A stretch of DNA of 64,000 nt from Escherichia coli (GTDB lineage Bacteria > Pseudomonadota > Gammaproteobacteria > Enterobacterales > Enterobacteriaceae): assembly GCF_050920415.1 (NCBI RefSeq), contig NZ_CP169309.1. The stretch is one strand, 5' to 3'. Positions 30,959-36,029 of this stretch are shown one piece after another (the first letter of the stretch is position 1; each line of letters begins with the position of its first letter). The notes under the pieces were generated by a model. It did no database searches. It had not been told where the DNA came from and worked only from the letters and a program-made list of their open reading frames with translations. Both the position numbers and the translations under genes were made by a program.

Positions 30959-32230
30959 TTACTCAATCAGCTTCAACAGTGGCGACAAGCATAACAAAAT
31001 GCCGTACAGCAGAATCATCCAGGCTTTAAACCCGCGAAGTTTTTCCAGTTGTGAGACTTTATAGATCAGGAAAAATGGAATGAGGCACGACACAATGCCA
31101 TATAACGGGCTTCCCAACTGAAAGAACACCAGCACCGATACACGAAACGAAACCCAAATCGTCAACGTAATGACGATAAAAGCGCAGATCGCCAGAGTCA
31201 GCATGCGTGAGTTAATTTTCTGGGTATCAATAATTCGGCTTAACAGATTGAGAATAATGCCTTTAATGGCCTCGTGGAAACCGAGATAAATGCCAAAGAA
31301 TGCGGTCAGTACGGCAAAGATATTCAGCACCGTAGAGGTGATATGAATGATATGCCCAGGGATCACCTGCGCGGCCAGTGCCAGTGCCGAGATATTTTGT
31401 TCAAAGGCAGAAACGGCTTCTTCGTGGCTAATTGAGAAGGTAAACGAAAAGGCAAAAAACAGGATCACCGCGATGAGCGTGACATAACTAATTCGGTGGG
31501 TACGCAGCGCGAGCCGGGTTGCCAGTACTTTATCCGCTTCCCGTTTACGATAGGCAATATTCATTGGGTTAAGTACCTGAATAAATACCGCAGAAAAGAA
31601 GCAAAAGGGAATGGTAAGCAGGACATCGCGGAAAAAGACGGAGGCTTGCGGGAAGGCGGTTATATTGGCGAAATTCCAGTGCGGGATCATCGCAAAACCG
31701 AACACGACGATAATCCCTACTTTGACCACCACCATTGGCCCGGAAATCTTAAACAGTAATCGTTCACCACCAGACGCAATTGCCACCAGTACGGCGAAAA
31801 TGGCGACTTTATAAAGTAGAGATTGTGAAAGATCGGCATCGGTTAAACCGAAGGTTTTCAGGTACGAGGCGCTGTCGAAAACCACGGAGAGAGAGTAGAT
31901 AAAAATCCCGTGGATAATCATCAAAAAGTAGATAACCCCGAGGAAAATTCCCCAGTTCTTCCCCAGGTAATGACTGATAATATCGGTGTAGTCATTACAG
32001 GAATCGCTTTCAGAAAGGGTTTTTAAATAAATGTCCTGCACTACCCAGGTGGCAGGATAAGCAATGATCGCTGCGGTAATAAATACCCAAATTCCCTTCA
32101 AGCCAATTTGTACTGGCATCAGCACGGTTCCGGCACCAATCGCCATGCCTATGCATAATAAAACCCAGCCGAAGTCGTAGCGTGTAAACGGCATTTTCTG
32201 ATCGTGTTTCGGTAGTGTGTTGTGCTGCAT
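30959..32230 (-). CDS. yhjV: putative amino-acid transporter YhjV (HAAAP/serine-transporter-like)
   Basis: ORF 30959..32293; start chosen at [15 protein letters not shown] (423 aa); polytopic membrane protein. Confidence 0.8.
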
Positions 32231-32363
32231 AAAGTCCTGTCCAGAAAGAAGTCGGCCTCGCAAAAATGAATAAACCCAGTTTCTCTTGCGCAACAGGTGG
32301 AGAAGTCGAATACGCAGTATGTAAAAAATGAGGCAATAGATTCACTGGGGAGGTCGCGAGGAG

Positions 32364-32385: not shown

Positions 32386-32585
32386 ATTTCACTACCAGTC
32401 TGGAGTCAGCCCGGATATGAACTGCAACTATTGCAAATAAAGAAATTAAGCTGGAAGGCATCACGCAATGAGGAAGATTGCCGGGTGCTGACGGTAAAAA
32501 GCAATCGTAAAATCAGCGGCAAGCCGGAAAGGTTCCGGTGAGGCGCAATGTTGCGGGGGCTTAATCCCTGGTGGCATTGGTTGCT

Positions 32586-32654
32586 GGAGAGAGAAAACCC
32601 CCGCACGTTGCAGATATTCACCTGACAACATCACGGGGGCTAATCTTGAACCTA
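32586..32654 (-). ncRNA. rdlD: Rdl antisense RNA, copy 1 (approximate ends)
   Basis: Minus-strand reading gives a GC-stem hairpin (CCCCCG...CGGGGG) followed by UUUUCUCUC; -10-like TATTCT upstream on minus strand; ends inferred from the Rdl family. Confidence 0.45.
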
Positions 32655-32705
32655 GACCACTCAAGAATAGCCGCGAAACGTTGTCATTACAACACAGGCG
32701 GCTAT

Positions 32706-32813
32706 ATGACGCTCGCAGAACTGGGCATGGCCTTCTGGCATGATTTAGCGGCTCCGGTCATTGCTGGCATTCTTGCCAGTCTGATCGTGAACTGGCTGAA
32801 CAAGCGGAAGTAA
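32706..32813 (+). CDS. ldrD: Ldr type I toxin peptide, copy 1 (35 aa)
   Basis: MTLAELGMAFWHDLAAPVIAGILASLIVNWLNKRK; Ldr family small hydrophobic toxin. Confidence 0.85.
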   Translation: MTLAELGMAFWHDLAAPVIAGILASLIVNWLNKRK

Positions 32814-33071
32814 CGTGTCAGACGGGCGTCAGGCTGCCGTAATGGCAATTTGCGCCCGGACCAGGCCGCAGGGATAAAACTCTGCGGCCTTTTTCGTAAG
32901 AAAAATGCAACGGTTGCAAGCGGATAATATTCTGCGGAATGCGCAGCACAGAGTGAAGAAGTGATGGATTCTGGAACAGAAAAACAGTCGTAGAATCAGC
33001 GGCAAGCCGGAAGGGTTCCGGTGAGGCGCAATGTTGCGGGGGCTTTATCCCTGGTGGCATTGGTTGCTGGA

Positions 33072-33140
33072 GAGAGAAAACCCCCGCACGTTGCAGGTAT
33101 GCACCTGACAACATCACGGGGGCCATTCTTGCATCCAAAC
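33072..33140 (-). ncRNA. rdlD: Rdl antisense RNA, copy 2 (approximate ends)
   Basis: Same structure as copy 1; minus-strand promoter-like TTGTAA, 17-bp spacer, TATTCT. Confidence 0.45.
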
Positions 33141-33188
33141 AATACAAGAATAGCCGCGAAACGTTGTCATTACAACAGAGGCGGCTAT

Positions 33189-33296
33189 ATGACGCTCGCA
33201 GAACTGGGCATGGCCTTCTGGCATGATTTAGCGGCTCCGGTCATTGCTGGCATTCTTGCCAGTCTGATCGTGAACTGGCTGAACAAGCGGAAGTAA
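33189..33296 (+). CDS. ldrD: Ldr type I toxin peptide, copy 2 (35 aa)
   Basis: MTLAELGMAFWHDLAAPVIAGILASLIVNWLNKRK. Confidence 0.85.
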   Translation: MTLAELGMAFWHDLAAPVIAGILASLIVNWLNKRK

Positions 33297-33555
33297 CGTG
33301 TCAGACGGGCGTCAGGCTGCCGTAATGGCAATTTGCGCCCGGACCAGGCCGCAGGGATAAAACTCTGCGGCCTTTTTCGTAAGAAAAATGCAACGGTTGC
33401 AAGCGGATAATATTCTGCGGAATGCGCAGCACAGAGTGAAGAAGTGATGGATTTCGACGAACAAAAATGGCCGTAGAATCAGCGGCAAGCCGGAAGGGTT
33501 CCGGTGAGGCGCAATGTTGCGGGGGGCTTTATCCCTGGTGGCATTGGTTGCTGGA

Positions 33556-33624
33556 GAGAGAAAACCCCCGCACGTTGCAGGTATGCACCTGACAACACCA
33601 CGGGGGCCATTCTTGCATCTAGAC
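33556..33624 (-). ncRNA. rdlD: Rdl antisense RNA, copy 3 (approximate ends)
   Basis: Same structure as copies 1-2. Confidence 0.45.
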
Positions 33625-33672
33625 CATTCAAGAATAGCCGCGAAACGTTGTCATTACAACAGAGGCGGCTAT

Positions 33673-33780
33673 ATGACGCTCGCAGAGCTGGGCATGGCCT
33701 TCTGGCATGATTTAGCGGCTCCGGTCATTGCTGGCATTCTTGCCAGCATGATCGTGAACTGGCTGAACAAGCGGAAGTAA
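33673..33780 (+). CDS. ldrD: Ldr type I toxin peptide, copy 3 (35 aa)
   Basis: MTLAELGMAFWHDLAAPVIAGILASMIVNWLNKRK (L26M relative to copies 1-2). Confidence 0.85.
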   Translation: MTLAELGMAFWHDLAAPVIAGILASMIVNWLNKRK

Positions 33781-34038
33781 CGTGTCAGACGGGCGTCAGG
33801 CTGCCGTAATGGCAATTTGCGCCCGGATCAGGCCGCAGGGATAAAACTCTGCGGCCTTTTTCGTAAGAAAAATGCAACGGTTGCAAGCGGATAATATTCT
33901 GCGGAATGCGCAGCACAGAGTGAAGAAGTGACGGATTCCGGAACAGAAAAACAGTCGTAGAATTAGCGGCAAGCCGGAAGGGTTCCGGTGAGGCGCAATG
34001 TTGCGGGGGCTTTATCCCTGGTGGCATTGGTTGCTGGA

Positions 34039-34107
34039 GAGAGAAAACCCCCGCACGTTGCAGGTATGCACCTGACAACATCACGGGGGCTAATCTTGAA
34101 CCCAAAC
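34039..34107 (-). ncRNA. rdlD: Rdl antisense RNA, copy 4 (approximate ends)
   Basis: Same structure as copies 1-3. Confidence 0.45.
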
Positions 34108-34155
34108 AACTCAAGAATAGCCGCGAAACGTTGTCATTACAACAGAGGCGGCTAT

Positions 34156-34263
34156 ATGACGCTCGCAGAACTGGGCATGGCCTTCTGGCATGATTTAGCG
34201 GCTCCGGTCATTGCTGGCATTCTTGCCAGTCTGATCGTGAACTCGCTGAATAAGTGGAAGTAA
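34156..34263 (+). CDS. ldrD: Ldr type I toxin peptide, copy 4 (35 aa, variant C-terminus)
   Basis: MTLAELGMAFWHDLAAPVIAGILASLIVNSLNKWK (W30S and R34W relative to copies 1-2). Confidence 0.8.
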   Translation: MTLAELGMAFWHDLAAPVIAGILASLIVNSLNKWK

Positions 34264-34349
34264 CGTGTCATGCGGGCGTCAGGCTGCCGTAATGGCAATT
34301 TGCGCCCGGATCAGGCCGCAGGGGTGAAACTCTGCGGCCTTTTTCGTTC

Positions 34350-36029
34350 TTATTGCGGGTAAGGCACCCAGTCGCCGCCGTTCAGGCGAACGTACGGTTT
34401 ATCCTGGTATTGAATAACTACTGCATTTGAGTTCTCGGAGACCGGTGCTGTTTGTGGCAACCCACTGGTGAGTTTTTTCCAGTCAACATTGTCTTCGGTG
34501 AAAATCTTACCATCAAGAACGCGAACCACCAGATCGGAGATAGCCAGGAAGCTGCTCGGTTGGTTGATGACAATCGGTGCCCCCTGATGTGGTGCCTTCA
34601 TGCCGAAGAATTTCACCCCAACGGGGACGTCTGTGATAGACGGGCTAGGGATATCACGTAGGCCAGATACCTGCATTCTGTCGCCCTTCAGCGCGCCACC
34701 GTGTTCCGGCACCACTACCACCATCACTTTACGACCCGATTTCTCCAGTTCAGTAAAGAAGGCGTCCAGCTCATCAAAGAATTTCTGCGCTCGCGCTTTG
34801 TAATCCGCTGTTTTGCTGACGCCCGGATAATGGTTGCCGTCATGCAGTGGAAGCGTGTTGTAGAACGTGGCACTACGGCTGTTTTTATCTTTTTCGGTAA
34901 CGTCCAGCCAGCGGTTAAGCACGGCGGTATCGTCATAAACCGGCGAACCATCAAAGCCCAACAAAATAACCGGCAGATTTGTTTGATCCATCAATTCGGT
35001 CTGCATGCCGCCATTTTCGCGAACTTCTTTCAAAAAACCGCCGAACTGGCCGTTATGTCCCATCATCAGGTGCTGGGTAAAGCCCAGTTTCGACAGGTTA
35101 TCAAACAGATAGCAGTCGTTATTTGCCGGTTGATACAGATTAGTGTGCGAAGTCTGCCCGCAGCTGGCGCGCAGTAAACGGATCGCCGCCGGGCCACTGT
35201 AGGAGGTGGCGGAGTTAAAGTTCTTGAACTCAATATCGAAATGCGACCACAGCGGATGCGACATCAACCCGGCGGCTTCAATATCCGACCAGGAAAGCGA
35301 ACAGATATTAATCACCAGTAGTTCAAATGGCTGAGCATCAGCGGGCAGCGAAGACGGGAAGGTCGATTTACGTTTCGCCTCCGCGTTATAGAAATTATTC
35401 AGCCAGGCGTTAAGGTTCGCCGTTGTTGGCGGTGCAGTTTGTGCGGGCATATCACCCACTACCGGTGCGCCACCCGTCGCCGCAACGGTTGCCGCTGCGT
35501 TACCACCCGTCGTTGTTACAGTGGTCGTCGGTTGACCGGCAGGCCACAAGGAGAAACTTGGTCCCGCCAGGGTAAGTACGTTCAGCCATAGCAGAATGGC
35601 AACCACAAAAACGGTAATGCGAATCCATTGTGACAGGAATAACCAGGCCACTAATAAAACAAAAATGGCCCCAATCATCTGCCAGTTAATAAAGCGTGTG
35701 ACAAGGTCGATTAAATAATCGGTACTGAACCCCGCCACCTGCGAACCCTGGCTCATTATGCTTTCCGGGCCAGGCAACCAGGTGTCATGCCAGAACAAAG
35801 CAAAGCCGATCGGCAGGGCAATCCAGTGGCGTAAGCGATGCAGGCTGTAGCGCGGAATGGGCATCAGCAGAAACGCGGCAAACACCAGATTGAGGAGCGG
35901 ATGGAAGTTAAGATATCCCGCCCACAACAGGCCGAACTTAACCAGAAAATAGAAGTTCCAGCCGGAAAGGCCGCGCCAGTATTGCCAGAGGGAAGAAGGC
36001 ATGGCGGTATTTTGCGTAAATTGAGTCAT
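34350..36029 (-). CDS. bcsG: cellulose biosynthesis protein BcsG (phosphoethanolamine transferase)
   Basis: 559-aa ORF, N-terminal TM segments plus periplasmic alkaline-phosphatase-like domain; head of the bcsEFG operon. Confidence 0.9.

Follow-up and report, generated by a model that had tools for sequence, protein, structure and literature searches.

Tandem Rdl antisense RNAs at the LDR-D locus of Escherichia coli differ in a 5' block that may act as a target-recognition element

Introduction

The stretch of DNA considered here, a contig segment of 64,000 nucleotides (nt) from Escherichia coli (assembly GCF_050920415.1, contig NZ_CP169309.1; referred to in its entirety as the window), carries four tandem copies of a long direct repeat (LDR), each encoding a small Ldr toxin and the cis-encoded antisense RNA Rdl. 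We focus on a block of 21 nt at the rdl 5' end, which is by far the most divergent part of the repeat and which may be the element by which each Rdl RNA recognises its ldr target. How Rdl recognises the ldr mRNA, and why several near-identical copies exist, are unsettled matters in this textbook type I family. In E. coli K-12 the Ldr/Rdl system was reportedly described by Kawano et al. in 2002, with ldrD/rdlD located between yhjV and bcsG, and ldrABC between kdsA and chaA. Toxicity of overproduced Ldr, countered by the cognate Rdl, has been reported for K-12 LdrD/RdlD only (PMC4147584). Rdl overlaps the 5' untranslated region (UTR) of ldr, not the ribosome-binding site, and the mechanism still needs work (PMC4147584, PMC8167048). 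Also in K-12, a peak of RNase III-dependent double-stranded RNA lies within the rdlD/ldrD overlap (PMC7373196). The length of the RdlD/ldrD overlap is given as 136 bp in PMC7967276.

The array and its ldr/rdl units

The array is bounded by yhjV (30959–32293, minus strand) and bcsG (34350–36029, minus strand), with dppF upstream in the list of open reading frames (ORFs), and is the LDR-D locus of E. coli. Repeat-family analysis and the alignment of the units (alignment A1) give a period of 483–484 bp with 95–96% identity among units, and Tandem Repeats Finder reports a period of 483, 3.8 copies and 95% matches. Over 2.4 kb the sequence matches E. coli N96 with 100% identity, and the RefSeq annotation of that strain lists four Ldr-family toxins here. 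The window shares with K-12 the family, the locus and its flanking genes, the 35-residue Ldr ORF, the 66-nt Rdl and the position of the Rdl 5' end, but K-12 has a single ldrD/rdlD unit between yhjV and bcsG, compared with four tandem copies here. Each unit contains a plus-strand ldr ORF, a minus-strand match to rdlD and an intrinsic terminator for each transcript, so that a toxin ORF, a cis-antisense RNA of about 60–66 nt and a repeat of about 0.5 kb at yhjV-bcsG, as in the Ldr/Rdl family, are all found at the sequence level.

32497–34347, plus strand: LDR array, four tandem units (three full units of about 483 bp and a last unit stopping at its own terminator)
32706–32813, plus strand: ldr copy 1, 35-residue toxin ORF MTLAELGMAFWHDLAAPVIAGILASLIVNWLNKRK
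33189–33296, plus strand: ldr copy 2, peptide the same as in copy 1
33673–33780, plus strand: ldr copy 3, ending in ILASMIVNWLNKRK, the commonest Ldr peptide at the LDR-D locus
34156–34263, plus strand: ldr copy 4, variant peptide ending in IVNSLNKWK, without the conserved Trp
32592–32657, minus strand: rdl copy 1, 66-nt antisense RNA (Rfam RF01813, 85.5 bits)
33075–33140, minus strand: rdl copy 2 (RF01813, 82.9 bits)
33559–33624, minus strand: rdl copy 3 (RF01813, 81.8 bits)
34042–34107, minus strand: rdl copy 4 (RF01813, 90.4 bits)
32664–32692, minus strand: putative rdl promoter of unit 1, with -10 element TATTCT (32664–32669) and -35 element TTGTAA (32687–32692)

All four rdlD matches are full-length, score well above the RF01813 gathering score of 50 bits, and each precedes an ldr ATG by about 49 nt. 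In the Rfam alignment, Rdl nt 1 falls at 32657, 33140, 33624 and 34107, which is the same base as the annotated 5' ends of K-12 rdlA–D. In the Rfam consensus, nt 1–16 are unpaired and are followed by the terminator stem-loop, and nt 1–11 have a predicted unpaired probability of 0.79–0.94 across the copies (0.94 in copy 1). The putative rdl promoter has a 17-nt spacer and a start 7 nt past the -10 element, and both elements are invariant among the units. Since a scan with the promoter consensus gave nothing over threshold (the assigned elements have 8/12 matches), the promoter is placed solely by its position relative to the K-12 5' ends.

A variable block at the rdl 5' end

The initial annotation described the four units as near-identical except for about 21 nt in the ldr leader, at the 5' end and promoter-proximal part of rdl. 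The alignment agrees with this description, and so does the position of Rdl: the rdlD matches start inside the block, and the mapped K-12 5' ends, checked against it, fall inside and not outside. The block comprises Rdl nt 17–1 and a further 4 nt that precede the Rdl start and lie between it and the rdl -10 element.

32641–32661: variable block of unit 1, TAATCTTGAACCTAGACCACT
33124–33144: variable block of unit 2, CATTCTTGCATCCAAACAATA
33608–33628: variable block of unit 3, CATTCTTGCATCTAGACCATT
34091–34111: variable block of unit 4, TAATCTTGAACCCAAACAACT

As many as 9 of the 29 variable columns fall within these 21 of 385 aligned columns (hypergeometric P = 3.5e-6; P = 1.3e-3 once corrected for all window positions), and per-site divergence among the four units is 0.278 in the block compared with 0.028 outside, about ten-fold higher. 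The contrast is sharpest where the flanks are closest: units 2 and 4 have identical left flanks over 126 nt and blocks that differ at 6 of 21 positions, and units 1 and 2 differ at a single right-flank site and at 9 of 21 block positions. Within the block, the variable Rdl positions are nt 3, 5, 7, 9, 15 and 17.

In alignment A1 the block occupies columns 146–166 and reads TAATCTTGAACC/TAGACCACT in unit 1, CATTCTTGCATC/CAAACAATA in unit 2, CATTCTTGCATC/TAGACCATT in unit 3 and TAATCTTGAACC/CAAACAACT in unit 4. Written as two sub-blocks, A and B, with two alleles each, as first proposed, the units are A1B1, A2B2, A2B1 and A1B2, and each combination does occur once. The two-allele description holds in the window for A. 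Sub-block B, which supplies only Rdl nt 3 and 5, is not strictly two-allelic because its trailing 2 nt also vary (CT, TA, TT and CT in units 1–4), and A turns out to be composite when further strains are considered (see below).

Smaller variable patches are seen elsewhere in rdl. One lies at 32614 and 32618 (unit 1), in the apical-loop region of the Rdl terminator hairpin, where unit 1 has GAUAUUC and the other units GGUAUGC; another, at 32631–32632, varies across strains and falls in the internal loop of the same hairpin. Almost all variation inside rdl is at positions that are unpaired in the Rfam structure.

Block haplotypes in E. coli and recombination

Another 20 LDR-D arrays, drawn from complete E. 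coli genomes at regular intervals along the ranking, were used for comparison, together with the K-12 ldrABC locus; the D-type data set comprises 60 units from 21 arrays. In these units the block is the top diversity peak, with a summed nucleotide diversity (pi) of 4.57 over 21 columns compared with 1.91 for the next window of the scan, and the per-site divergence within arrays is 0.256 in the block and 0.030 outside, making the block 8.5–10 times more divergent overall. The proposed recognition element is thus the most variable region among the paralogous antisense RNAs.

The alleles can be resolved into four pieces, with TAA and CAT for piece a; AAC, CAT and ACT for b; TAGACC, CAAACA, TGAACA, TTAACA and TACACA for c; and ACT, ATT and ATA for d. 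At least 10 block haplotypes exist in E. coli, with 2 singletons among the 60 units. Because CAT+AAC and TAA+CAT both exist, the A sub-block of the two-part description is composite. The variable positions form three linkage groups, a (32641, 32643), b+d (32649–32651, 32660–32661) and c (32653–32655, 32658), where b and d are fully linked although the freely assorting c sits between them. The K-12 rdlD block, TAA-ACT-TAGACC-ACT, differs from the block haplotypes of the window.

The window holds four of the five commonest haplotypes. Exact 40-nt queries for these five against all 5,426 complete genomes gave the following counts:

H1, TAA-AAC-TAGACC-ACT (unit 1): 2,312 genomes, 2,339 places
H3, CAT-CAT-CAAACA-ATA (unit 2): 1,717 genomes, 1,735 places
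H5, CAT-CAT-TAGACC-ATT (unit 3): 1,359 genomes, 1,383 places
H4, TAA-AAC-CAAACA-ACT (unit 4): 1,403 genomes, 1,447 places
H2, CAT-AAC-TGAACA-ACT (not in the window): 2,192 genomes, 2,233 places

Three of these haplotype searches each returned one copy on a plasmid record, and ldr/rdl units are thus occasionally plasmid-borne.

The arrangement of LDR-D is fluid, with 18 different arrangements in 21 arrays and copy numbers from 1 to 4. The commonest four-copy array (L006, L007 and L015) has as its third unit CAT-AAC-TGAACA-ACT, whereby A and B each gain a third type, CAT-AAC and TGAACA, respectively; arrays L003 and L006 contain the same four haplotypes in different order. A perfect two-by-two set of combinations is present in one of seven four-copy arrays, that of the window, and would arise in about 1.2% of cases for four random draws from the pool; among the 5,426 complete genomes no other matches the N96 array at ≥99% identity. 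The pattern A1B1, A2B2, A2B1, A1B2 is therefore one draw of four common haplotypes from a species pool, and as a recurrent rule of shuffling it does not survive the comparison. We found no description of such a mosaic, species-wide allele pool of the Rdl tail in the accessible literature.

The initial annotation further ascribed the combinations to non-random recombination between copies. Recombination as such is supported. Four-gamete violations are found for 23 of 45 site pairs inside the block, 125 of 253 outside and 182 of 230 between block and flank, the nearest-neighbour flanks mostly carry different blocks, and recombination among copies is the parsimonious explanation because parallel mutation would need 3–4 identical substitutions. 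The non-random, two-by-two design that was read into it is not supported. Since violations are equally frequent outside the block, the shuffling is general to the repeat and not aimed at the block, and the equal frequency across the unit rules out a block-specific recombination hotspot. Concerted evolution within arrays can also be rejected, as the distance outside the block is 0.0305 within arrays and 0.0293 between arrays.

Conservation of the alleles and their distribution within genomes

The 73 columns in which the ldrABC and ldrD families have diverged should be under the least constraint and served as the comparison set. Pi is 0.086 in these columns compared with 0.218 in the block (Mann-Whitney P = 0.008). 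At the same time the individual alleles appear to be conserved. A pattern scan of one genome per GTDB species, in which four chance matches in unrelated bacteria (L024, L032, L033 and L037) were ignored, returned D-type units from E. whittamii, Escherichia sp. E1V33 and a divergent GTDB representative. In all five of these units the block is identical to an E. coli haplotype, while the flanks are 3–7% diverged from E. coli units, and no closer to units with the same block; even at the flank rate about 5 block differences would be expected. The block alleles are thus old, and shared unchanged with other Escherichia species. The high pi, the discrete haplotypes and the identity across species together indicate that each allele is conserved and that many alleles coexist.

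All blocks within an array are distinct in 15 of 16 multi-copy LDR-D arrays, as they are in the window. When the blocks are shuffled among arrays, with shared ancestry ignored, 6.3–8.5 identical-block pairs are expected within arrays and one is observed (P = 0.005 to 0.0004). For the five haplotypes of the census, 9,137 places correspond to 8,983 genome-haplotype occurrences, so that about 1.7% of the places are second copies, a count in which fully identical repeats could be collapsed in some assemblies.

Predicted pairing between Rdl and ldr

Tail duplexes were computed for Rdl nt 1–18 against the 18-nt target in a four-by-four table. The cognate duplex is best in every row and column, at -27.0 to -29.9 kcal/mol. 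Duplexes between copies that differ in sub-block A have predicted energies of -6 to -15 kcal/mol, whereas copies that differ only in B are weakly separated. Pairing is hence not predicted to be equal over the 16 combinations, in line with what a cognate preference, as the initial annotation suggested, would require. Full-length duplex energy was also considered as a discriminator and was rejected, as all 16 combinations are very stable (-106 to -143 kcal/mol).

Predicted structure of the ldr leader

On the ldr strand a hairpin is predicted about 50 nt before the toxin start codon, with its apical loop and 5' arm made up by the block.

32638–32672, plus strand: predicted ldr 5' UTR hairpin, GGCUAAUCUUGA[loop]UCAAGAAUAGCC, repeated in each unit (RNAfold)

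The conserved TCTTGA and TCAAGA that flank the block form an inverted repeat on this strand, and RNAfold gives the hairpin a free energy of -10.7 to -13.7 kcal/mol. Pieces b, c and d lie in or beside the predicted loop, and piece a sets the position of a single stem mismatch, exactly one of which is always kept: the allele is TAA or CAT, never TAT or CAA. The linkage of b and d fits the loop-closing pairs 32650–32660 and 32651–32659 better than it fits simple crossing-over. The hairpin is a prediction only. A YUNR U-turn was considered as a general feature of the target loop; by eye, CUAG, CUGA and CUUA (the TAG, TGA and TTA alleles) have the motif, but the CAUCCAAACAAUA loop does not, and the candidate was dropped.

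Comparison with other antisense systems

The closest functional precedent for a block of this kind is Sib/Ibs. There, five near-identical cis-antisense RNAs have two target-recognition domains, TRD1 and TRD2, which fall in their most variable regions (Han et al. 2010, PMC2943612), and discrimination has been shown experimentally, as swapping the TRDs re-targets the small RNA (PMC2943612). As for Ldr/Rdl, these are multi-copy cis-antisense/toxin modules of high identity, with recognition elements in variable stretches, the function that is proposed here for the Rdl tail. The two systems differ in extent and layout, as Sib spans the entire ibs mRNA with two independent TRDs and Rdl spans the 5' UTR alone with one tail block, and also in that discrimination by Sib is experimental while that by Rdl is a matter of predicted energies. 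Reassortment of sub-blocks and sharing of alleles across species, which are seen for Rdl, were not part of the Sib study.

The hok/sok system from plasmid R1 and its chromosomal homologues resembles ldr/rdl in the architecture of the antisense RNA, a single-stranded 5' tail and one stem-loop, and in that the antisense RNA targets a long 5' leader instead of the toxin's ribosome-binding site. There is no sequence homology between the families, and the target hairpin is only predicted in the case of ldr. In ColE1 RNA I/RNA II and IncFII CopA/CopT, changes of a few unpaired bases alter both partners at once and create a new specificity that does not cross-react. Those systems concern replication control and plasmid incompatibility groups, while here we deal with tandem chromosomal toxin modules in one genome. 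Both the Ldr/Rdl system and the principle are thus known, and a recognition tail in Rdl would be a further example of the latter.

Role of the variable block

The likeliest role of the block is that of a recognition element that discriminates between paralogues, similar to the Sib/Ibs TRDs. We lean, with moderate confidence, towards the view that it is the target-recognition determinant of each ldr/rdl module, with partial insulation of the copies; judging from the modelled duplexes, it probably keeps the tandem copies partly insulated from each other. The single-stranded Rdl 5' tail would initiate pairing with ldr, as can be expected by analogy with Sok/hok and the Sib TRDs. A change in the block would leave the cognate pair perfect and add mismatches with the Rdl RNAs of the other copies, such that pairs that differ in pieces a and b are predicted to be well separated, and pairs that differ in c alone poorly so, and in one direction only. 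The alleles would be reassorted by the same recombination or gene conversion that scrambles the rest of the repeat, copy number (1–4) would change by unequal crossing-over, and selection for non-cross-reactivity, rather than history alone, would keep the blocks distinct. Rdl is cis-encoded and therefore matches its own ldr mRNA automatically, so selection could act only on the mismatch with other copies. The idea that each antisense RNA has been selected to match its own toxin mRNA, as first put forward, is not supported for this reason.

Several observations weigh against a recognition role. Two of the 12 non-cognate pairs are predicted to be nearly cognate-like, Rdl2-ldr3 at -27.0 kcal/mol and Rdl4-ldr1 at -24.8 kcal/mol; they need only two G·U wobbles and come within 3 kcal/mol of cognate, and because wobbles alone suffice in these pairs, insulation is predicted to be partial. 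The reverse directions are weaker, Rdl3-ldr2 at -20.8 and Rdl1-ldr4 at -18.6 kcal/mol. Over the other 48 nt, each Rdl is complementary to all copies apart from 0–3 mismatches and, since this region is shared and all full duplexes are stable, any discrimination must be kinetic and take place at the initiation step. The variable positions 32658, 32660 and 32661, and their equivalents in the other units, are outside the annotated Rdl, upstream of its start. In a covariation test on 17 distinct haplotypes the ldr hairpin has no compensatory pairs and 8 invariant pairs; its cells are paired in 82% of cases compared with 22–48% when the pattern is slid, and there are 0 double changes. Compensatory change is here not possible because the 3' arm of the hairpin is the invariant rdl -10 element. 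The predicted accessibility of the loop in the full UTR is also inconsistent, at 0.39–0.81. Identical blocks do reside together in K-12, where rdlB and rdlC have the same tail, and in L019, which has two; E. whittamii holds two identical ABC-type blocks, and one genome holds 4 copies of a single haplotype. The rarity of duplicates could, moreover, reflect history, that is, recurrent deletions from an ancestral multi-copy array without selection, which the permutation null does not account for as it ignores shared ancestry. Finally, we found no experiment or paper on discrimination among Rdl paralogues in the accessible literature.

Among the alternatives we regard a neutral mosaic as the most probable, though still unlikely. 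According to this explanation the block is simply the least-constrained stretch of the repeat, in which old paralogues have been reshuffled by general recombination, with every Rdl able to repress every ldr mRNA by way of the 48-nt stem-loop region that they share. Cognate matching is then automatic, with the complement of the tail supplied in cis, and the well-paired non-cognate combinations, the genomes with coexisting identical blocks, the equal frequency of four-gamete violations inside and outside the block, and the confinement of nearly all rdl variation to unpaired positions (tail, apical loop at 32614 and 32618, internal loop at 32631–32632) are all as would be anticipated; deletions from an ancestral array would yield distinct blocks without selection. 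Lack of constraint is difficult to reconcile with a block diversity 2.5 times that of the columns diverged between ldrABC and ldrD (P = 0.008), or with the discrete haplotypes, 2 singletons in 60 units. Blocks that remain unchanged in five of five units from other Escherichia, next to flanks that are 3–7% diverged, point to alleles that are conserved and not drifting, and identical or near-identical flanks are found beside blocks that differ at 6–9 of 21 positions. If all Rdl RNAs do cross-react, the block represents old paralogue differences that survive in one unconstrained patch of a scrambled repeat.

A bolder form of the recognition hypothesis, to which we give no more credence than to neutrality, is that the block acts as a combinatorial specificity code. 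Old sub-block alleles would then be combined by gene conversion into antisense/target pairs that are mutually non-cross-reacting, and each copy would be separately addictive: loss of a unit by unequal crossing-over would remove the sole Rdl that silences the stable ldr mRNA of that unit. Such a code, if true, would explain the persistence of multi-copy arrays as well as the rarity of identical blocks per genome, and would in effect constitute an incompatibility-group system among chromosomal repeats.

It is rather improbable that the alleles mainly tune expression, by determining how strong the rdl promoter is or where it starts transcription, how stable the ldr hairpin is, or both, such that copies differ in toxin/antitoxin ratio or induction. 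Three variable positions do lie between the -10 element and +1, and hairpin free energy differs by allele (-13.7 compared with -10.7 to -11.0 kcal/mol). The single stem mismatch that piece a always keeps, and the linkage of b and d across c, by which two loop-closing pairs are added or removed, are in keeping with such a role. Against it, most variable positions in the window, 7 of 10, are inside the Rdl tail, and the hairpin has no support from covariation. Tuning is compatible with, and does not exclude, a function of the block in recognition. By far the least probable explanation is that the tandem repeat was misassembled or that the arrangement is due to chance, which would suit a two-by-two pattern that was spotted after the fact, is perfect in one of 5,426 genomes at ≥99% identity and is expected in about 1.2% of random four-unit draws, but each haplotype of the four occurs independently in 1,359–2,312 complete genomes, multi-copy arrays with distinct blocks occur in many independent assemblies, and the differences cluster in the block with high significance.

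If the block does discriminate between paralogues, the recognition site of Rdl is identified, and with it a reason for the tandem arrays to persist, since each copy would be separately addictive. The arrays would then also provide natural, nearly orthogonal antisense/target pairs that differ at only 2–9 bases.

Toxin reading frames and other features of the repeat

The Ldr peptides have the features of the family, a hydrophobic ORF of 35 residues with a conserved Trp and a charged C-terminus, except that copy 4 lacks the Trp: copies 1–3 end in NWLNKRK and copy 4 in NSLNKWK. Relative to peptides ending in IVNWLNKRK, copy 4 has the changes W30S and R34W. This peptide is found once among the 60 sampled units, and unit 4 of L001 has W30S alone. 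The Trp has been described as a signature of the Ldr/Fst superfamily (PMC2887945), and judging from the sequence the copy 4 toxin may have reduced or no activity.

The ldr 5' UTR is itself open in frame with ldr, at 32571–32813, 33021–33296 and 33988–34263, corresponding to 80–91 codons from a GTG. In D-type units this upstream frame continues across rdl and the variable block. Its counterpart in the ldrABC-type units of L004 terminates in an ATGA that overlaps the start of ldr, an arrangement that resembles translational coupling. Unit 3 has a run of six G at 33521–33526 where the other units have five, which shifts the frame of the upstream ORF in this unit only. A leader ORF, ldrX, resembling that of hok/mok and acting in the role of mok, has been proposed for ldr (PMC4147584, PMC8167048). 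The upstream ORF may be this ldrX; a search for an ldrX leader in D-type and ABC-type units gave several candidate ORFs, none convincing across both.

32863–32890, plus strand: ldr intrinsic terminator, unit 1
33346–33373, plus strand: ldr intrinsic terminator, unit 2
33830–33857, plus strand: ldr intrinsic terminator, unit 3
34313–34340, plus strand: ldr intrinsic terminator, unit 4

A further variable patch is found at the unit junctions (32965–32990, 33448–33475 and 33930–33955), for example GGATTCTGGAACAGAAAAACAGTCG compared with GGATTTCGACGAACAAAAATGGCCG. It spans the last 15 nt or so of the spacer and about the first 10 nt of the next unit, and a hexamer immediately downstream of it, TAGAAT/TAAAAT, is a possible ldr -10 element.

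The surroundings of the locus vary among the sampled strains. In L010 and L014 the annotation lists bcsG, directly downstream of the array, as a pseudogene that has an internal stop. Strain AVS0530 (L014, 1–1343) has a HipA-family type II toxin-antitoxin module beside yhjV, where other strains have dppD and dppF. In strain GN25 (L022, 3521–3979), whose best match to the query is only 81.6% identical and lies at the ldrABC locus, not at yhjV-bcsG, an inserted IS200C transposase separates kdsA from the ldr units.

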